A stretch of DNA of 6,572 nucleotides, from positions 1 through 6,572 of IMG/VR virus record IMGVR_UViG_2663762849_000010; one strand, given 5' to 3'. The translations under genes and the position numbers were made by a program. Positions 1-6,572 of the stretch are shown here, one piece after another (within the stretch, counting starts at the first letter, position 1; every line of letters begins with the position of its first letter). This DNA comes from a virus. Its lineage: Duplodnaviria > Heunggongvirae > Uroviricota > Caudoviricetes. The notes under the pieces were generated by a model. That model worked only from the letters and a program-made list of their open reading frames with translations, was not told the origin of the DNA and did not search any database.

Positions 1-1
1 A

Positions 2-277
2 CACATCCTGCGCCTCTAAAATTACGGGGCGCTTTTCCGGCAACGGTTCGTTCCCTTCACATAACCCGGCAGCAACATCCATGAAAAACTGCTTCGCCTG
101 CTTTTTCGCCTCAGCTTCGTAACACTCCAGCGTGGCATCTTCAGTACGGTCAAGACTAATCGCCACATCTGGCAACAACAGTGACGGATACCCACCAATT
201 TCCAGTGCCACAGTAACAGTAATCTTATTCGGGTAATTATTTATCCCTTTAACAACCAGTTCGTATTTTTTCTTCAT
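2..277 (-). CDS. Partial CDS (N-terminal 92 codons, continues past window start); uncharacterized lambdoid-prophage protein directly downstream of the holin, in the position YdfR occupies in prophage Qin; not an endolysin
   Basis: ATG at 277..275 lies 4 nt after the S stop codon, preceded by GGAGAG (SD). Frame is open to position 2. Translation MKKKYELVVKGINNYPNKITVTVALEIGGYPSLLLPDVAISLDRTEDATLECYEAEAKKQAKQFFMDVAAGLCEGNEPLPEKRPVILEAQDV is soluble-looking, with no SAR or lysozyme motifs. The YdfR/DUF1327 comparison is from memory of Qin gene order only. Confidence 0.6.
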   Translation of the reverse strand, partial: MKKKYELVVKGINNYPNKITVTVALEIGGYPSLLLPDVAISLDRTEDATLECYEAEAKKQAKQFFMDVAAGLCEGNEPLPEKRPVILEAQDV

Positions 278-281
278 CGCT

Positions 282-497
282 TTACTCTCCCCGCGCCGCC
301 TTACGACGGTCCTCTCTGATTTTGAAATACAGGTTAGTCAGATATGTCAGCAGCCCAAACAGCAGACTTCCCAGTACGCCTATTGCCGCCCACTGAGACG
401 GGGAAACCCTGTCCAGCAGCTGCAGGAACCAGTAGCCCGTCCCCACCGCTGACGTGGTGTATGACACACCTGTTGTGATTTTTTCCATCTGGTACAT
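282..497 (-). CDS. S: Class II holin / pinholin, S21-like (71 aa), with dual-start motif M-Y-Q-M
   Basis: ATG at 497..495 with GGAG 7 nt upstream; second in-frame Met at codon 4 (488..486) gives the 71/68-aa antiholin/holin pair typical of S21-type pinholins. Hydrophobic core and C-terminal [13 protein letters not shown] tail match the S21/EssQ family as recalled. Confidence 0.85.
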
Positions 498-572
498 ACC
501 CCGTCTCCCGCAATCCGGAAGCTCACAACAACAAGAGGGGCATCAGCTCACACCGACAGCCCCTGCGCATGG

Positions 573-842
573 TTACATCATCATTTCGCCGTCAGGCTGA
601 GGCTCACTGCTACCATCAGGCTGAGACCCGACGCCATCTGAAACAGCACTGTCATCCGCAATGCCTTCCGGCTCCGGAACAGTCGGTGCGCCCAGCAGTT
701 CATCCAGAATGGCATCCACTTCTGCATCAAGACGCTCCTCAAGGTTCTGCCGAAGTTGCTGTTTCAGTGCGCTTCTGACTTCTTCAGAGCGCAGGACTTC
801 CTTCACTGCTTCAGCAGTGACCAGCGATTTTATTTCTGACAT
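573..842 (-). CDS. Hypothetical acidic protein (89 aa), helical N-terminal half and Asp/Glu/Pro/Ser-rich C-terminal tail
   Basis: The track ORF 573..956 begins with TTG; the first ATG (842..840) gives MSEIKSLVTAEAVKEVLRSEEVRSALKQQLRQNLEERLDAEVDAILDELLG... Only a weak SD (GAGAAAA). Sits between nanS-p and S on the same strand. Confidence 0.45.
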   Translation of the reverse strand: MSEIKSLVTAEAVKEVLRSEEVRSALKQQLRQNLEERLDAEVDAILDELLGAPTVPEPEGIADDSAVSDGVGSQPDGSSEPQPDGEMMM

Positions 843-879
843 GGTATTTTCTCGTTGAAAGGTGTTGTTAAGAAAGTTG

Positions 880-1062
880 CTACGGAATGAGAGGCTCTTC
901 GGGTTTTGTTCCGGCTGACTGACTGGCACTGATTTTCTCAGCGGCCCTTTTGTCAATCTGTCTGCGCCAGAAATCTCTCACGACTCTGTACCCACCAGAA
1001 AGAAGATACAGCACACAAACTGCTGTACAGAAATACAACATAATCAGCTGTAAAAATGTCAT
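880..1062 (-). CDS. Small membrane protein (60 aa), one N-terminal transmembrane helix then a basic tail
   Basis: ATG at 1062..1060 with GGAG 7 nt upstream. MTFLQLIMLYFCTAVCVLYLLSGGY is hydrophobic, followed by RVVRDFWRRQIDKRAAEK. Same strand and operon context as the lysis genes. Confidence 0.55.
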   Translation of the reverse strand: MTFLQLIMLYFCTAVCVLYLLSGGYRVVRDFWRRQIDKRAAEKISASQSAGTKPEEPLIP

Positions 1063-1211
1063 TATTCATCTCCATTATTGACATGGTCAATGCCTGCCAG
1101 TAAAAAACTCCTGCATTTTTTGCTCAGCATATTTTTGCTAAGGATGTAGCGACTTCTGCCGCCGGTTCTGGCTCCTTGTTTTCCCTGCCACGGCGGTCTT
1201 TTTTTTCCTGC

Positions 1212-3155
1212 TTACGGGTTATTCACTTCCACTGTTATACTTTCAATCAGCACCGTATACGTCGCCGCTTTTGTGATATCCGTTACACGTAATTTGTCTG
1301 CCGCAAAAGAACCTACCGGAGACTGCGACAGCATGAACGGTGCACCATCCTGACCATCAATCACCGGCGTCACCTGAATGCTGTTATTACCGGCAAAACG
1401 GAAGCCCAGCGTATGCCATTCGTTGTCAAATGCGCCGAATGACCCCAGCTTCGTGTTCTGGTCAGCGTTACCCTTGTGGTACATCACGTTGAGGTCTGTG
1501 GCATCGCTCTGTACGTAAAACGACGCCAGCAGATTGTTACCGGCATTACCTTCCAGTGTGACACCCTGAGGCAATGAAGAAACCGGCCAGTACAGCGCCA
1601 GTGCGTACTGATTAGCCGTAAGCGCGCCATCGAGTTTAAAACGACAACTGACAAGACCACCTTTACCCAGCAGGTCCGCACCATTACCAGCATCATGCTC
1701 AAGGTACCAGGGGGCTCTTCCTGTTTCCTTGGTCAGTTTCATTGCCTTACCCCCGCTGGCTCCGGCATCATCCACGATTTGAGCCTTGCCACCTCCAGCA
1801 GCCCAACCCTGTGGTGTCAACCGTCCTTCAGACTCAGATGCCCGGTAAGCAAATAGCGTACTCATCGTCGTGGTGTCTGCGGGTGGCGTGGACGGTTTTG
1901 ATGGTGTATCAGGTGACGGCTTCTCATCCGGTGGTGTCACGGTCTGCCCGCGCATCAATTCAGCCGTGCGCCCTGCATGGAGCATAATAGCTGAGGCCAG
2001 ACGGTCTGAAATGACGCCCCTGCGTGCCCATGAGCTGAAATGGCTGTCACGCTGTGTCGAAACAAAACTGCCCTGGGTTCGGGATGCTGCACCGTAATAC
2101 CCGACAGCCACAATATCCGGGTCTTCCGCCGGAGCATTCGTTGGCGTGCTCTGTCCATTCTCATCCGTCAGGAACGGTACAAAGAAAATATTCTGTGCTT
2201 CCCTGCCCTTGTAACCGCCATATACCGCCTCATATTTATCGGCGTTAAGATTCTTCCAGTAATACGTGGTGTCACCACAAATCCACGGCACCGAGCCAGC
2301 ACTTCCGCCAACACACTGTGCAGAATATGCAGCCATATCAGCCCTGAACTGCTGCACCATAGTGGTAAACAGGCCGCTGTGCTGCTGACTGCCGTCCGCA
2401 AGATCATTTTCCCCCTGCATCCATACCACGGCCAGAAGCCTGTTTTTCGGGTTCTTCGACAGCGCCGCTTTTGTACGGAAGAGAAAATCCTGATACAGCG
2501 GTTTACCCACTCCCCAGCGGGCTGAATTTGCCGATGCGCCAGACGTTTCGCTGAACGTGCCGTCATTACCCACGGTTAAACCAGACCCGCCACGGCAACA
2601 GGGCACCAGAAGAATCCCGGCATTCTGCGGGATATAAGGCAGCAGTTTTTTGGCAATATGCAGCCCCTGACCGACAGTCCCGTACTGGCCCTTACTCAGG
2701 TCTGCATGAGGATGGTTAAGTGCGCTCATGTCCTGAACATCATGCAGACAGTGGTCTGCCGGAATAACGTCATTGTATGCACAGATATCACCACCCGGCG
2801 TCACAGTGCTGCGACGGGCCAGCTGCTTAATACGGGAGTCAGGGCGATCATAGGTCTCCGGCAGAGGAAGCCCCTCACCATAGGCCATACCGTTCGACTG
2901 CCCGGCCAGGGGAATAACGTAGTAATACTCCGGTTCAGTGGTAGCCACTCCCGGAGAGCCACCAGCCCCTGTGTCGGGCACAACCACAGGCGTGGTCACA
3001 TCACCCTCTGCGGCAATGGCCTGCATCAGTGTATAAGGCGTGATAGCCACAGGACTGCCAAACGGCTGCCAGCCTTCCTTCAGTTTTTGTGTCAGTCGCT
3101 CCGCAAGGTCTGACGGCGACGCCGCCCTGACCACGTCATAGTGTTTAAATGCCAT
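1212..3155 (-). CDS. nanS-p: Prophage 9-O-acetyl-N-acetylneuraminic acid (sialate) O-acetylesterase, NanS-p type: DUF1737-like N-terminal domain, SASA/SGNH esterase core, Pro/Thr/Ser-rich linker, C-terminal beta-rich domain (647 aa)
   Basis: The track ORF starts at a TTG (3185); the real start is taken as ATG 3155..3153, preceded by GGGGAGGAATA (strong SD), giving MAFKHYDVVRAASPSDLAERL... Contains the esterase nucleophile motif IPLAGQSNGMAYGEG, a linker PPDEKPSPDTPSKPSTPPADTTT, and stop TAA at 1214..1212. Architecture matches the large ORF found downstream of stx2 in Stx phages (L0105/Z1466 type) as recalled. Confidence 0.9.
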   Translation of the reverse strand: MAFKHYDVVRAASPSDLAERLTQKLKEGWQPFGSPVAITPYTLMQAIAAEGDVTTPVVVPDTGAGGSPGVATTEPEYYYVIPLAGQSNGMAYGEGLPLPETYDRPDSRIKQLARRSTVTPGGDICAYNDVIPADHCLHDVQDMSALNHPHADLSKGQYGTVGQGLHIAKKLLPYIPQNAGILLVPCCRGGSGLTVGNDGTFSETSGASANSARWGVGKPLYQDFLFRTKAALSKNPKNRLLAVVWMQGENDLADGSQQHSGLFTTMVQQFRADMAAYSAQCVGGSAGSVPWICGDTTYYWKNLNADKYEAVYGGYKGREAQNIFFVPFLTDENGQSTPTNAPAEDPDIVAVGYYGAASRTQGSFVSTQRDSHFSSWARRGVISDRLASAIMLHAGRTAELMRGQTVTPPDEKPSPDTPSKPSTPPADTTTMSTLFAYRASESEGRLTPQGWAAGGGKAQIVDDAGASGGKAMKLTKETGRAPWYLEHDAGNGADLLGKGGLVSCRFKLDGALTANQYALALYWPVSSLPQGVTLEGNAGNNLLASFYVQSDATDLNVMYHKGNADQNTKLGSFGAFDNEWHTLGFRFAGNNSIQVTPVIDGQDGAPFMLSQSPVGSFAADKLRVTDITKAATYTVLIESITVEVNNP

Positions 3156-3243
3156 TATTCCTCCCCTTTCCGGGATTTTCCTCAACAGTTGCGGGCCACG
3201 GTCCGGCTACACGGAGAATCAAAAGAGGAGAACCGCAGCCCGC

Positions 3244-3274
3244 AAAACGAAAAAGGCCGCGCAGTTGCGCAGCC
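3244..3274 (-). terminator. Intrinsic terminator-like hairpin on the minus strand, about 90 nt upstream of the nanS-p start
   Basis: Minus-strand RNA GGCUGCGC-AACU-GCGCGGCC (8-bp stem with one G.U pair) followed by UUUUUCGUUUU. The plus-strand version has a C-A mismatch and no U tract. Confidence 0.5.
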
Positions 3275-3338
3275 TTATCACAGATGGTAAAAATCAGAAC
3301 ACGATAATAAAAATACCTGATGTATATTCATGCGACCC

Positions 3339-3366
3339 GCCCGCCACTCACTGCGGGCTTTTTTTT
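3339..3366 (+). terminator. Strong intrinsic terminator on the plus strand
   Basis: GCCCGC-CACTCACT-GCGGGC followed by eight T (3359..3366). On the minus strand the hairpin follows an A-run and has no U tract, so it is plus-specific. No annotated plus-strand gene lies upstream. Confidence 0.55.
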
Positions 3367-3374
3367 GCCCATAG

Positions 3375-3401
3375 AAAAGCCCCTCCGGAGAGGGGCTTTT
3401 T
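3375..3401. terminator. Bidirectional terminator hairpin
   Basis: AAAA-GCCCCTC-CGGA-GAGGGGC-TTTTT: 7-bp GC stem flanked by an A4 and a T5 run, so a U tract follows the hairpin on either strand. Confidence 0.5.
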
Positions 3402-3641
3402 ACAGTGGTAGTGTAGACAATTTTGCATGGTGCCGGGTGCCTCCCGGTGAGTTCAGTATCAGCACCTGAACCCGCACAGAAAGGATAAGGGTCGGTGACA
3501 AAACACCAGTTGCTGATTGCCCCTCCGCTTAGGGGGATTCACCATGCCAGTTTCTTTTAACAAACTCCCCGCAAACCAGACAACAGTCAACCGCCTGAAT
3601 TGTGAGGTATTTAAAAATTTCAACGGGTAACTGATACCCTG

Positions 3642-3803
3642 CTAATCGCCTGATGCTTTCTTTTTCAGCAACGGGAAAGCAACAACCACCACACCCGCCA
3701 CCAGCACACCGTCAGCCAGCACTGACATTATCCGGCTGCTGAAGTCCACCATCACCACCATCACCACCAGAAACAGCAGGAGCGCAACCACAGCCAGACG
3801 CAT
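3642..3803 (-). CDS. Possible small hydrophobic peptide (53 aa, two predicted transmembrane segments) directly downstream of the TerB-like gene
   Basis: ATG at 3803..3801, 8 nt after the TerB-like stop; translation MRLAVVALLLFLVVMVVMVDFSSRIMSVLADGVLVAGVVVVAFPLLKKKASGD, stop TAG at 3644..3642. No good SD (possible coupling). Below the 60-aa cut-off of the supplied track. Contains rare codons CGG and ATA. Confidence 0.3.
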   Translation of the reverse strand: MRLAVVALLLFLVVMVVMVDFSSRIMSVLADGVLVAGVVVVAFPLLKKKASGD

Positions 3804-3811
3804 TTTTACCG

Positions 3812-4243
3812 TCACAGATGATTCTCCAGACGAAGGCCCAGAACACCGGCAATCTCTTCCAGCACCTTGCGCTCTTCCGGCTCTATTTCGCCGTCTGCTT
3901 CGGCAATGGCCACCGCCACATCCAGCACGTCTTCCGCTTCACGCGTATCGTGTTTCACATCCTCGATCTCACGTAACGCCGCTCGACGACCAATTTTAAA
4001 GTTCGTATCCAGCTGACCGATAATGGTTGCGCTAATCGCATTAATTTCTGACGTAAACGCGGACAACGCAGGCTGGTTACGCAAGACCTGCTCGATCTTC
4101 GCTTTCTCTGAAGCCTCACATTCACCATCTGCATAGGCCACCAGATAGGCAGCATTAATAACCGCCTGTGCCAGATCACGTTTCTCAAACTTTTTAATTT
4201 CCACTGCCGCTCGGCGGGCTTTTTTACCAAAAATACCAAACAT
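3812..4243 (-). CDS. TerB-like (tellurite-resistance TerB family) protein, 143 aa
   Basis: Start taken at ATG 4243..4241 with AAGGAA SD 7 nt upstream; the upstream ATG at 4315 has poorer context and would add 24 non-domain residues. Two repeats of the acidic TerB-type motif (AAYLVAYADGECEASEKAKIEQVL and VLDVAVAIAEADGEIEPEERKVLEEIAGVLGL) and an N-terminus MFGIFGKKARRAAVE resembling TerB N-termini, judged from memory of the family. Confidence 0.7.
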   Translation of the reverse strand: MFGIFGKKARRAAVEIKKFEKRDLAQAVINAAYLVAYADGECEASEKAKIEQVLRNQPALSAFTSEINAISATIIGQLDTNFKIGRRAALREIEDVKHDTREAEDVLDVAVAIAEADGEIEPEERKVLEEIAGVLGLRLENHL

Positions 4244-4375
4244 CGTGACGTTCCTTTGGGTGGGTGAGCCAACGCCCGGGAGCGATCTGCCCACAGAGAA
4301 AGTCACACTGACCATTCCGTAAGCTCACCCCCGAAAGGCTCTGTGGTTGATATGCGCCGGGCGTGGCGCGGATAC

Positions 4376-4402
4376 AAAAAAGGCCCGCAAAAGCGAGCCG
4401 GG
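4376..4402 (-). terminator. Intrinsic terminator immediately downstream of the tRNA cluster
   Basis: Minus-strand RNA GGCUCGC-UUUU-GCGGGCC (7-bp stem with one G.U) followed by UUUUUU; begins about 12 nt after the CCA end of the last tRNA. Confidence 0.65.
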
Positions 4403-4413
4403 AAAAATAAGTC

Positions 4414-4490
4414 TGGCGCGTTGTACTGGATTCGAACCAGTGACCGATTGCTTAGAAGGCAATTGCTCTGTCCGGCTGAGCTAACAACGC
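4414..4490 (-). tRNA. argO: tRNA-Arg (anticodon UCU, decodes AGA/AGG), 77 nt with encoded CCA
   Basis: Hand-folded cloverleaf: acceptor GCGUUGU/ACAACGC, D-arm GCUC/GAGC, anticodon stem AUUGC/GCAAU with loop CUUCUAA, T-loop UUCGAAU, 3' GCCA. Symbol assigned by synteny with the ileZ-argN-argO cluster of Stx phages, not verified. Confidence 0.88.
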
Positions 4491-4504
4491 AGAATGCCGA
4501 TAAA

Positions 4505-4581
4505 TGGACCGCCATCGAGGACTCGAACCCCGCGCAACCAGCTTCGAAGGCTGGCGCTCTTTCCTGATGAGCTAATGGCGG
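4505..4581 (-). tRNA. argN: tRNA-Arg (anticodon UCG, decodes CGA/CGG), 77 nt with encoded CCA
   Basis: Cloverleaf: acceptor CCGCCAU/AUGGCGG, D-arm GCUC/GAGC, anticodon stem CCAGC/GCUGG with loop CUUCGAA, T-arm CGGGG/CCUCG with loop UUCGAGU. Unusual C1 and U73 discriminator noted. Symbol by synteny only. Confidence 0.8.
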
Positions 4582-4588
4582 TATGTGA

Positions 4589-4664
4589 TGGTGGCCCTTG
4601 CTGGATTTGAACCAGCGACCTGGCGATTATGAGTCGCTCGCTCTCACCACTGAGCTAAAGGGCC
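4589..4664 (-). tRNA. ileZ: tRNA-Ile2-like (anticodon CAU, presumed lysidine-modified to read AUA), 76 nt with encoded CCA
   Basis: Cloverleaf: acceptor GGCCCUU/AAGGGCC, D-loop AGUGGUGA, anticodon loop CUCAUAA, T-loop UUCAAAU, discriminator A. Closely resembles E. coli tRNA-Ile2 (ileX) rather than initiator or elongator tRNA-Met, judged from memory of that sequence. Confidence 0.85.
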
Positions 4665-4670
4665 GGGCAT

Positions 4671-4702
4671 AGGATAATAACGGTACGTAACTAATTCTGC
4701 AA
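4671..4702 (-). promoter_or_regulatory. Candidate sigma-70 promoter for the tRNA cluster
   Basis: On the minus strand TTGCAG (-35), 17-nt spacer, TATTAT (-10), ending about 9 nt before the mature 5' end of tRNA-Ile. Hexamer match only. Confidence 0.4.
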
Positions 4703-4713
4703 TCTCATCCGTT

Positions 4714-5040
4714 TCAAACGATTAAATCCTGAACTTCCCTGACTGTCTGCTCAAAACGTCCGGTCTCCAGTTCAACGCCAATCGCACGACGCCCGAGCGC
4801 CAGTGCCGCTTTTACCGTTGAACCTGAGCCCATAAAAAAATCTGCAACCTGGTCTCCCGGACGACTGCTCGCGTTGATTATCTGCTGCAACATTTCTGCC
4901 GGTTTTTCGCACGGATGTTTCCCTGGATAGTACTGCACCGGTTTATACGTCCACACATCCGTGTACGGCACCTGCGCCGTCACGCCAAAATACCGCCGCA
5001 GTCGGCATTCACAACCACCAGCGCATTTAACGTTCAGGCA
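4714..5040 (-). pseudogene. 3' remnant of a beta-class N6-adenine/N4-cytosine DNA methyltransferase: C-terminal AdoMet-binding part only, N-terminal DPPY catalytic part absent
   Basis: Translation contains HPCEKP and DFFMGSGST(V)...GRRAIGVELE (FxGxG motif I). There is no in-frame ATG upstream of the internal Met just before the motif; the open frame runs back through the tR' terminator to the Q stop codon. Stop TGA at 4716..4714. Confidence 0.5.
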
Positions 5041-5067
5041 CAAAAAAACCCGCTCATCGGCGGGTTT
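5041..5067 (-). terminator. tR'-like intrinsic terminator downstream of Q
   Basis: Minus-strand RNA AAA-CCCGC-CGAUGA-GCGGG-UUUUUUU; on the plus strand the hairpin is followed by only TTTAAG, so it is minus-specific. Its 3' end lies about 85 nt after the Q stop. Confidence 0.65.
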
Positions 5068-5160
5068 AAGCTGTGTGGCGTAGTAACCACTCTTAACATA
5101 CTGACATACTTTTTGCGGACCGCGCTAATCATTTTTTACTTTTTTGGGCAGCCAGTCGTC
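5068..5160 (-). promoter_or_regulatory. Putative late promoter pR' / Q-utilization (qut) region overlapping the 3' end of Q
   Basis: Position only: the Q stop-to-terminator interval is too short to hold a promoter plus leader, so the promoter probably overlaps the Q 3' end. No convincing -35/-10 pair found (weak candidates ACGACT and AAAAAT/TATGTT). Confidence 0.3.
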
Positions 5161-5517
5161 CATCTCCAGCCTTACACCCAGCATCGACAGACATCCGTCA
5201 ATAAATCCTTCAGCAATCTGCATCTCAATTCGTATTGCCTTTTCGCTCTTCTTTCTTGTTCTGGCAATCTGCCTTTTTGATATGCGCAGCAGATAATGAG
5301 CTACCAGCAGCGAATACTCGTCCGGTTTTTTCTTCTTCAGGCGCGTAAGGCAGTTTTCGATGATAAGGCCGTCATCATCGCTGCAGGCCGGGCGAGGTTT
5401 AGCGGTGGATGGTAAAAGGCCTTTAAATCCAGCAGCTATCGGAGAATAGTCCACCCCGGCGTTACCACTTGCCGCCCATGCCCCCCAGCGTTCGAGAACC
5501 ATCTGAATATCACGCAT
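5125..5517 (-). CDS. Q: Late-gene antiterminator Q (phage 82 / Stx-phage type), 130 aa
   Basis: The track ORF begins at a TTG (5532); the first ATG (5517..5515) has GGAG 7 nt upstream and gives MRDIQMVLERWGAWAASGNAGVDYSPIAAGFKG... Stop TAG at 5127..5125. Basic C-terminal region; located just upstream of the tR'-like terminator and tRNA cluster, the canonical Q position. Confidence 0.85.
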   Translation of the reverse strand: MRDIQMVLERWGAWAASGNAGVDYSPIAAGFKGLLPSTAKPRPACSDDDGLIIENCLTRLKKKKPDEYSLLVAHYLLRISKRQIARTRKKSEKAIRIEMQIAEGFIDGCLSMLGVRLEMDDWLPKKVKND

Positions 5518-5534
5518 CAACTTTCTCCACAAAA

Positions 5535-6530
5535 TCAGGACAGCACACCAATCGCCAGCGCGCGATCGATAAAACGAAATATCAGCTCCAGTTGGGAACC
5601 ATACTTATCTTCAAATGCCACGGTATCCGCATGCAGTTTGTCATGGTGTTTTCTGCACAACGGCAACACAAAAAGGTCATGCGATTTTGTCCCCATACCA
5701 CCCTGGCCGTGACCAATCAGATGATGCGGATCATCAGCTGGCTTTCCACAACATGCACACGGCTGCGTCTTAACCCAGCGAGTGTACTTTTCATTAACCC
5801 AGCGACGACGTTTGGGGCGTAACATAAAAGACTCCGGCGACTCCGGATCCACTTTCAGCGCCAGCACCTTTTTCGCTTTATCCCGGATAATACTGGTGGC
5901 AGTAACCGAAGGCACAAGGTCACTCTCCCGGGTGACAGACGGCAAAACAGGCTTCGGTAATCTCAGGGCCTTACGGGCTGCACTTTCCGGTAAGGCATCC
6001 GCCAGGTCATTACGAACCAGCCACCAGCACAGTTCCGGCATTGTCACAACGTGACTGTCATCAAAACCAAGATCACGGCGCACAACAGACAACACCCAGC
6101 GGGCACAGTTATCCGTTGCCATTGATTCCAGCCGTTCCGTGAACTGGTCACGGAGGAGATTGTCACAGTGCCAGCACAGACGGATTGCGCCCGGAGCGTG
6201 TCGCATTGTGGTCATGTTCTCGCTGTGCCATCCGGAATGAGGCCACTGGCAGCCTTTTTCACGAAGTAACCAGCTTTCAAGACATTCCACGCCACCAGCA
6301 CGACGGATCACTGCCTCATGGCGGAACACGGCCCGAACGGCAGGATCATCCGCCAGCGGTTGTGATGCCGCCGGAACGGCACCACTGGCGAAAGATGAAT
6401 AACGCTCCGGCTCAGGCTCCAGCAGGACACGCCCCTGCATAAACAGGGGCATCAGCTCTGAACCTGGCCTGAACAATACGATCCCCATACGCGGGGCAAT
6501 TTCAGGGGTCAGTAGTGCTCTCACAGTCAC
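5535..6530 (-). CDS. DUF968 / YdfU-like prophage protein with C-terminal HNH-like Cys/His motif (about 330 aa)
   Basis: C-terminal motif CACCGKPADDPHHLIGHGQ...LPLCRKHHDKLH. Immediately upstream of Q, as ydfU is to quuQ in prophage Qin (recalled). Start uncertain: GTG at 6530 or 6524 (GAGG SD 5 nt upstream of the latter); an in-frame stop lies at 6557..6555. Confidence 0.75.
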   Translation of the reverse strand: MTVRALLTPEIAPRMGIVLFRPGSELMPLFMQGRVLLEPEPERYSSFASGAVPAASQPLADDPAVRAVFRHEAVIRRAGGVECLESWLLREKGCQWPHSGWHSENMTTMRHAPGAIRLCWHCDNLLRDQFTERLESMATDNCARWVLSVVRRDLGFDDSHVVTMPELCWWLVRNDLADALPESAARKALRLPKPVLPSVTRESDLVPSVTATSIIRDKAKKVLALKVDPESPESFMLRPKRRRWVNEKYTRWVKTQPCACCGKPADDPHHLIGHGQGGMGTKSHDLFVLPLCRKHHDKLHADTVAFEDKYGSQLELIFRFIDRALAIGVLS

Positions 6531-6572
6531 CTCAATGAACGGTATCGAGCAGCTTTAACAGCTCAGGAAATC

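Follow-up and report, generated by a model that had tools for sequence, protein, structure and literature searches.

Through prophage-encoded anti-sRNAs, a lysogenic phage can rewire the core sRNA network of its host. To our knowledge, AsxR and AgvB are the only prophage anti-sRNAs with known targets. AsxR antagonises FnrS and AgvB antagonises GcvB (PMC4104026). Both are members of the 'convergent sRNAs' that Tree et al. 2014 (PMC4104026) described in lambdoid prophages, where they occupy the interval from the moron CDS that follows PR' to a conserved phage ORF. The short pair members, AsxR (EcOnc02), AgvB (EcOnc01) and EcOnc03, are primary transcripts of 51-60 nt antisense to the late operon; the evidence for AsxR, EcOnc03 and AgvB comes from crosslinking to Hfq, northern blots and 5' RLM-RACE, and the family combines a conserved 3' part with a variable 5' part (PMC4104026).

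The stretch analysed here (the window) comprises 6,572 nucleotides of a Caudoviricetes virus (IMG/VR record IMGVR_UViG_2663762849_000010, positions 1 to 6,572). It represents the late part of a lambdoid prophage of the Stx type, transcribed on the minus strand, and an identical chromosomal locus in RefSeq carries a matching gene annotation. Its features are as follows.

1212-3155, minus strand: nanS-p-type esterase gene with DUF1737, SASA and DUF6645 (Pfam scan; RefSeq annotation of the identical locus)
3243..3276, minus strand: hairpin 1, predicted intrinsic terminator; stem 3253-3262/3267-3276, loop 3263-3266 (AGTT), U-rich tail 3252-3243 (folding, conservation)
3265..3294, plus strand: putative promoter of the plus-strand sRNA; -35 TTGCGC at 3265-3270, TG at 3285-3286, -10 TAAAAA/AAAAAT at 3288-3294 (alignment)
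3302..3366, plus strand: predicted sRNA of ~65 nt, 'class D' (sub-threshold Rfam matches, custom model R1, position as AsxR in 933W)
3339..3366, plus strand: hairpin 2, predicted terminator and probable Hfq-binding 3' module; GCCCGC 3339-3344, loop CACUCACU, GCGGGC 3353-3358, T8 3359-3366 (folding)
3367..3576, minus strand: STnc100-family sRNA, 210 nt (Rfam RF02076)
3375..3400, both strands: hairpin 3; GCCCCUC 3379-3385 and GAGGGGC 3390-3396, with A4 and T5 flanks, extended by A/U pairs (STnc100 model positions about 175-206)
3642-3815, minus strand: DUF3927 gene
3812-4315, minus strand: TerB-family gene
4382-4399, minus strand: terminator directly 3' of the tRNA cluster
4414-4664, minus strand: tRNA cluster Met-CAT, Arg-TCG, Arg-TCT
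4714-5043, minus strand: methylase gene fragment, a 109-aa ORF (Pfam N6_N4_Mtase positions 135-219 of 221)
5046-5067, minus strand: strong terminator AAACCCGCCGATGAGCGGGTTT followed by a T run, ~60 bp downstream of the Q gene
5125-5532, minus strand: Q antiterminator gene
5535-6530, minus strand: DUF968 gene

On the minus strand, nanS-p is the first late gene 3' of the hairpin cluster, and DUF826 and holin genes lie beyond it in the late order. The terminator at 5046-5067 is probably the tR' of the late promoter, and StxS-type short RNAs arise at that place in Stx phages. The methylase ORF between tR' and the tRNA cluster represents the C-terminal part only. In Sakai Sp4, the tRNA-cluster terminator stands directly ahead of STnc100; because the two are adjacent there, the TerB and DUF3927 genes of the window look like an insertion between them.

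A reading of this DNA made from the letters alone (the sequence-only reading) had noted three terminator hairpins within 160 bp between the cargo genes and nanS-p. Folding and a consensus scan place all three exactly where that reading put them, and they are conserved in the homologous loci, across hundreds of related prophages, where they vary by compensatory or wobble changes. Across the window, 18 terminator-like sites were flagged by the scan, versus 7.0 +/- 2.6 in shuffled sequences; 3-4 of these 18 fall inside the 160-bp stretch (expected about 0.2-0.4), and hairpins 1-3 rank among the best sites of the window. A G+C-rich stem-loop followed by a U run, as in an intrinsic terminator, is present for hairpin 1 on the minus strand, for hairpin 2 on the plus strand and for hairpin 3 on both, so that termination is predicted in these orientations.

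The cluster probably represents a 'convergent sRNA pair' module in the moron slot of lambdoid (Stx-type) prophages, with hairpin 1 as an extra terminator and with the plus-strand RNA as a divergent anti-sRNA. Like the published pairs, the plus-strand element lies downstream of PR', between a cargo CDS and the esterase ORF, is antisense to the late operon and is convergent with a longer sRNA. The structures are present and conserved, and the locus is homologous and syntenic with those of experimentally mapped RNAs; by analogy with these, the plus-strand RNA would be transcribed, bind Hfq and act as a sponge, and the hairpins may terminate efficiently. The architecture has been known since 2014, and what is new here is a rare, unannotated and divergent member, probably with a different target. 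The locus is no new kind of system, but it illustrates the insulation of a moron slot by nested terminators.

Six phage loci, 70-78% identical to the intergenic region of the window, were used for comparison, and the convergent layout is common to the six phages. In 933W, AsxR (88 bits, plus strand of the locus) abuts STnc100 (208 bits, minus strand), which is the geometry of the pair in the window. BP-4795 and phage 7888 carry an EcOnc03-type RNA at the AgvB threshold (56.6 bits). The slot, the -35 hexamer, the aligned -10 and a CGAU start are common to 933W, BP-4795, phage 7888 and Sakai Sp10.

The longer member of the pair is the STnc100-family sRNA, whose Rfam match reaches 144 bits (gathering score 47, E 8e-33) and spans model positions 1-206, that is, the full model. 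This gene had been missed by the sequence-only reading, which described hairpin 3 as a bidirectional hairpin. That description stands insofar as hairpin 3 folds stably in either orientation (-19.8 and -22.8 kcal/mol, z about -4.4) and both strands carry a flanking run; it is, however, primarily the terminator of STnc100, being the last stem of the Rfam model. The 3' ends of STnc100 and of the convergent plus-strand sRNA abut at 3366/3367. As a minus-strand partner, the window thus has a full-length member of the STnc100/EcOnc27 group with hairpin 3 as its terminator. EcOnc27 of Sakai Sp5 appears at about 235/247 nt on northern blots, and the published EcOnc27 northern probe maps within the STnc100 match of 933W. 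According to a 2026 survey of Pas sRNAs, the STnc100 family is related to PasD and adjoins the prophage esterase gene. The window copy follows TerB/DUF3927 cargo and not stx, and most relatives do not have its plus-strand T5 on the 3' flank. This T5 (3397-3401) is confined to the lineage of the window, the minus-strand U run being general among the relatives, and we may speculate that hairpin 3 could serve in this lineage as a back-up terminator for the plus-strand sRNA. A weak minus-strand promoter candidate for STnc100 (TTAGCA 3647-3642, 17-nt spacer, TGAAAT 3624-3619) overlaps the DUF3927 stop codon and would give an RNA of ~246 nt, near the ~247 nt of EcOnc27. Pairing in trans between STnc100 and the plus-strand RNA was no better than with shuffled sequences (z +1.3).

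Hairpin 1 lies between the sRNA pair and the 5' UTR of nanS-p. Its minus-strand form consists of 10 bp and then UUUUUCGUUUUG (-19.2 kcal/mol, z -3.9), whereas the plus-strand form contains a C.A mismatch and lacks a T run (-14.9 kcal/mol). It is the best-conserved piece of the intergenic region and nearly invariant in alignment A1 of seven loci. Six of the seven types of stem variant form a G.U pair on the minus strand and a mismatch on the plus strand, one singleton shows the opposite strand preference, and in the class E loci (see below) the outer half of the stem is missing. Since a U run follows it on the minus strand alone and the wobble changes favour the minus-strand RNA, hairpin 1 is best regarded as a minus-strand RNA structure. 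We infer that it keeps transcription from the promoters of STnc100 or of the cargo from reading through into nanS-p and the lysis genes. The earlier suggestion that the minus-strand hairpins would stop non-antiterminated transcription ahead of nanS-p appears reasonable. Mitomycin C induction raises nanS-p by 1-2.4 log (PMC10462455), which is consistent with Q-dependent read-through.

In several respects this recalls classical lambdoid Q antitermination (PR'/tR'): intrinsic terminators separate the cargo from the lysis genes on the late strand, only Q-modified polymerase would be expected to get past them, and nanS-p is induced together with stx. The difference is that here an sRNA gene owns one of the terminators, and another sits within the promoter of an opposing sRNA, as the plus-strand -35 hexamer is part of hairpin 1. 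No specific mention of a named terminator ahead of nanS-p turned up in a search of the literature, and a conserved minus-strand terminator doubling as the -35 region of an opposing sRNA promoter was not found in the literature searched.

On the plus strand, the promoter candidate named in the sequence-only reading (TTGCGC, a 17-nt spacer, TAAAAA at 3288-3293) is present, and it also has a TG at 3285-3286, as in an extended -10. It agrees with the consensus at 3/6 and 4/6 positions, and because only 7/12 positions match together, the consensus scan missed it. The candidate aligns with the AsxR, EcOnc03 and AgvB promoters (TTGCGC, 18 nt, TAAAAT). In alignment A1, hairpin 1, TTGCGC, the -10 and the CGAU start are all kept, the -10 element being TGGTTAAAAT in most loci and TGGTAAAAAT in the window. 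This conservation argues that the window promoter is homologous to promoters that drive mapped RNAs. It would be a weak sigma-70 promoter with an extended -10.

The RNA predicted from this promoter would start at 3300-3302 and end at 3366, giving about 65-67 nt as compared with 51-60 nt in the published relatives. It would be laid out as an A-rich 5' region, CGAUAAUAAAAAUACCUGAUGUAUAUUCAUGCGACCC, followed by the terminator. A plus-strand RNA of ~65 nt, divergent from nanS-p, had already been suggested from the letters alone; homology to mapped RNAs now supports this prediction. The strong plus-strand terminator (GCCCGC stem plus T8) assigned to its end is likewise borne out by folding (-12.5 kcal/mol, z -2.5). 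Hairpin 2 would be a terminator on the plus strand only, the minus strand having no U run after the stem. In related loci its stem shows the compensatory variants GCCCGA/UCGGGC, GCCCGC/GCGGGC, GCCCGCG/CGCGGGC and GCCCGCAU/AUGCGGGC; this comparison relied on inspection and folding of the stems, as the MAFFT alignment A3 misplaced the 5' arms between classes. The U8 after hairpin 2 and the AAU-AAA-AAU repeats at 3306-3314 are compatible with binding of Hfq.

The evidence on family membership is mixed. In a permissive Rfam search, the plus strand at 3302-3363/3365 matches AsxR (RF02703) with 22.2 bits (gathering 63) and AgvB (RF02702) with 13.9 bits (gathering 56), both below the curated scores. 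The Rfam models are narrow, since the validated EcOnc03 just passes that of AgvB (56.6 vs 56) and fails that of AsxR (46.8); for this reason the plus-strand RNA is treated here as a divergent family member despite its scores. A covariance model, R1, made from AgvB, AsxR, EcOnc03 and class C with the variant of the window left out, finds only 3302-3365 on the plus strand, at full length (28.9 bits, rough E 9e-6), the next match in the window having 6.6 bits. The published conserved 3' region of ~42 nt (GUAUCUCAUGC..UUGCCCGAACCCACUCGGGC and a U run, after a variable 5' part of 14-18 nt) is partly kept: the window RNA has GUAUAUUCAUGC and then differs in the linker, the closing pair and the loop. 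Taken together, we regard the predicted RNA as a rare, unannotated, divergent relative of the AsxR/AgvB/EcOnc03 anti-sRNAs. Weak Rfam matches to STnc370, Leu_leader, SorY, MicC, OmrA-B and isrK on either strand were rejected as far below threshold and caused by the terminator hairpins alone.

AsxR (EcOnc02, RF02703) of the Stx2 phages Sp5/933W shares several features with the window RNA: the slot between cargo and nanS-p, the antisense orientation to the late operon, a 3' end abutting STnc100, the -35 TTGCGC, the aligned -10, the CGAU start, an A-rich 5' end (CGAUUAUUAAAAC vs CGAUAAUAAAAAU), a GUAU..UCAUGC core, a GCCCG-type terminator and the U run. Unlike AsxR, the window RNA is ~11 nt longer, contains an extra ACCUGA-like insertion and reads AUUCAUG where AsxR has AUCUCAUG; the closing pair and loop of its terminator are GCCCGC/CACUCACU and not GCCCGA/ACCCAC; it scores 22 bits in Rfam as opposed to 88 bits for true AsxR; and it accompanies TerB/DUF3927 and not stx2. 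AgvB (EcOnc01a/b, RF02702) and EcOnc03 of Sakai Sp10/Sp17/Sp9, together with class C, have the same architecture and promoter as the window RNA. AgvB differs in carrying the GcvB-target mimic CACAACA, with strong pairing to GcvB, and in its terminator type.

The slot has held a variety of RNAs. Two IMG/VR pattern scans and the loci of the phages and of Sakai together yielded 194 module copies, in which no fewer than six or seven RNA bodies (AgvB, AsxR, EcOnc03, classes C, D and E, and a singleton class F) use one promoter and a GCCCG-type terminator, that is, a single promoter-and-terminator cassette carries all of them. On the 5' side, the window RNA is closest to class C (CGAUUAUAAAAAUGUAUAUCUCAUGC...), the two being alike over the 5' two-thirds; the window RNA differs from it by an insertion of 6 nt and by AUUCAUG replacing AUCUCAUG. 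The terminator of the window RNA (CCGCCCGC...GCGGGC) resembles those of classes E and F. Because its 5' two-thirds are class C-like and its terminator class E/F-like, the window RNA looks recombinant. Class E (EcOnc08/21/42 of Sakai Sp4/Sp15 and VT1-Sakai) shares with the window the slot, the -35 hexamer and a related terminator, CCGCCCGC...GCGGGC with a U run, to which that of the window is closer than to the AsxR type. It is unlike the window in its unrelated body CCAGCUGAAAUAUUACUUCACGUUUUGUUGUUUAUUCC, its strong -10 TATTAT and the ~271-nt northern species reported for it. The class E body lies at 539-702 of the Sakai Sp4 locus (L130), occurs also in Sp15 and equals the EcOnc08/21/42 Hfq peaks. 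Two further prophage sRNAs were considered and set aside: HnrS (EcOnc10-12), of 66 nt, belongs to another locus about 5 kb away, and the coordinates of EcOnc15 in Sp15 fall between Q and stx1A and not in the slot downstream of stx1B.

The module in the window probably works as follows. In the moron slot, which is bounded by nanS-p and by the cargo that the Q-dependent late promoter precedes, the 210-nt STnc100-family sRNA on the late-operon strand would end at hairpin 3. On the plus strand, the weak promoter with its -35 inside hairpin 1 would drive the ~65-nt RNA to its end at hairpin 2 and U8. Judging from its homologues, this RNA most likely acts as an Hfq-dependent anti-sRNA of lysogeny: its U tail and A-rich 5' region would bind Hfq, and its variable 5' region would base-pair with an RNA of the host, probably one of the core sRNAs, and sequester or destabilise this partner. 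Hairpin 1 would block read-through from STnc100 and the cargo into nanS-p and the lysis genes, and Q-modified polymerase from the late promoter would pass all these terminators.

The distribution of the variant bears on whether such a regulator is still made. The variant of the window is found in 6 IMG/VR loci and in 17 of 5426 complete E. coli genomes (0.3%), most of which come from animals, water or human commensals. It scores below both Rfam thresholds and is unannotated in all 17 genomes, which points to an annotation gap. Three of the 17 copies are identical to that of the window, three have another single change and 11 have C3354A, a change also present in the loci L208 and L089. E. coli NMBU-W12E19, JKHS016 and S1-CAM-01-A are carriers of the identical locus, and OkiPb01678 is an example with C3354A. 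C3354A turns GCGGGC into GAGGGC and breaks the terminator stem (MFE -8.1 vs -13.3 kcal/mol), and its presence in 11/17 genomes argues against strong purifying selection. One IMG/VR copy has the -10 change A3290G. These two mutations, together with the rarity of the variant and the weak match of its promoter to the consensus, are what would be expected if the plus-strand element were a decaying relic of an anti-sRNA, with hairpins that still insulate STnc100 and the late operon but with no functional regulator made. In the window copy, however, the promoter is intact and the 6-bp stem, with its U8, is perfect, and the plus-strand T5 of hairpin 3, found in this lineage only, could terminate the RNA where hairpin 2 is weakened. 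Moreover, some of the RNAs that are most abundantly bound by Hfq in EHEC are close relatives driven by the same promoter. We therefore consider decay an unlikely account of the element.

It appears quite improbable that the plus-strand product is a long transcript of ~270 nt, possibly made beside the short form, which would run from the 5' end of nanS-p across its ribosome-binding site and hairpin 1 to 3366 and act as a cis-antisense regulator. The precedent is class E: EcOnc08/21/42 in Sakai Sp4/Sp15 give two adjacent Hfq peaks, one of them antisense over hairpin 1, and a northern band of ~271 nt, a length which implies that this species begins within the 5' end of the esterase gene and is antisense to the ribosome-binding site there. 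The window, in contrast, has the promoter and the 5' start of the AsxR/EcOnc03/AgvB group, whose members have primary 5' ends at CGAU and lengths of 51-60 nt. Its nanS-p 5' UTR is of another sequence type than that of Sp4, and the consensus scan found no plus-strand promoter upstream.

A small plus-strand protein with the hairpins being incidental, for which mechanical ORFs of 48-49 aa exist (3265-3411 and 3320-3469), can be dismissed as extremely improbable: each ORF spans two strong terminators, no stop codon separates the ATG at 3320 from the U8 terminator, and no reading frame is conserved because the variants differ here by indels of 1 nt and 6 nt, which destroy the frame.

If the plus-strand RNA is indeed a divergent anti-sRNA, its variable 5' region may reveal a partner. 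The RNA was screened against 17 core K-12 sRNAs taken by coordinate, with duplex and cofold energies compared with those of shuffled sequences. The positive control AgvB-GcvB gave a duplex of -26 kcal/mol (z -2.5) and a cofold ddG of -16.2 (z -3.0). The window RNA showed no complementarity to GcvB beyond that of shuffles (z +1.4). For FnrS, whose terminator loop is the target of AsxR, the AsxR-FnrS control was itself not separated from the background by duplex energy. The best partner among the 17 sRNAs was OmrB (ddG -13.0 kcal/mol), a value matched by 1/1000 shuffles of the sRNA 5' region and by 14/1000 shuffles of OmrB nt 1-56, and not robust to correction for 17 tests. As 17 targets were tested, OmrB is a lead and not a result. 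The duplex would join nt 16-37 of the RNA (window 3317-3338, CCUGAUGUAUAUUCAUGCGACCC) with OmrB nt 32-56 through 20 bp, including seven perfect pairs, AUUCAUG/CAUGAAU, in the stretch specific to this variant. OmrB nt 32-56 form the OmrB-specific central region, outside the 5' seed common to OmrA; OmrA with the window RNA gave -8.1, and the other family members on OmrB gave -6.5 to -10.7.

These observations allow a more specific but doubtful proposal: an unnamed anti-sRNA may have acquired its specificity by recombination, joining a class C/AsxR-type 5' half to an EcOnc08-type terminator, and it may sponge or destabilise OmrB and not OmrA, while hairpin 1 has a dual use as terminator and -35 region. 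If so, this dual use would make read-through or late transcription and expression of the anti-sRNA mutually exclusive. OmrB offers a testable target hypothesis; the practical value of the locus as a whole is modest. Of 5426 genomes, 5333 carry OmrB at 99% identity or more, and if the proposal is true, its sponging would retune the control of the outer membrane, curli and motility in lysogens.
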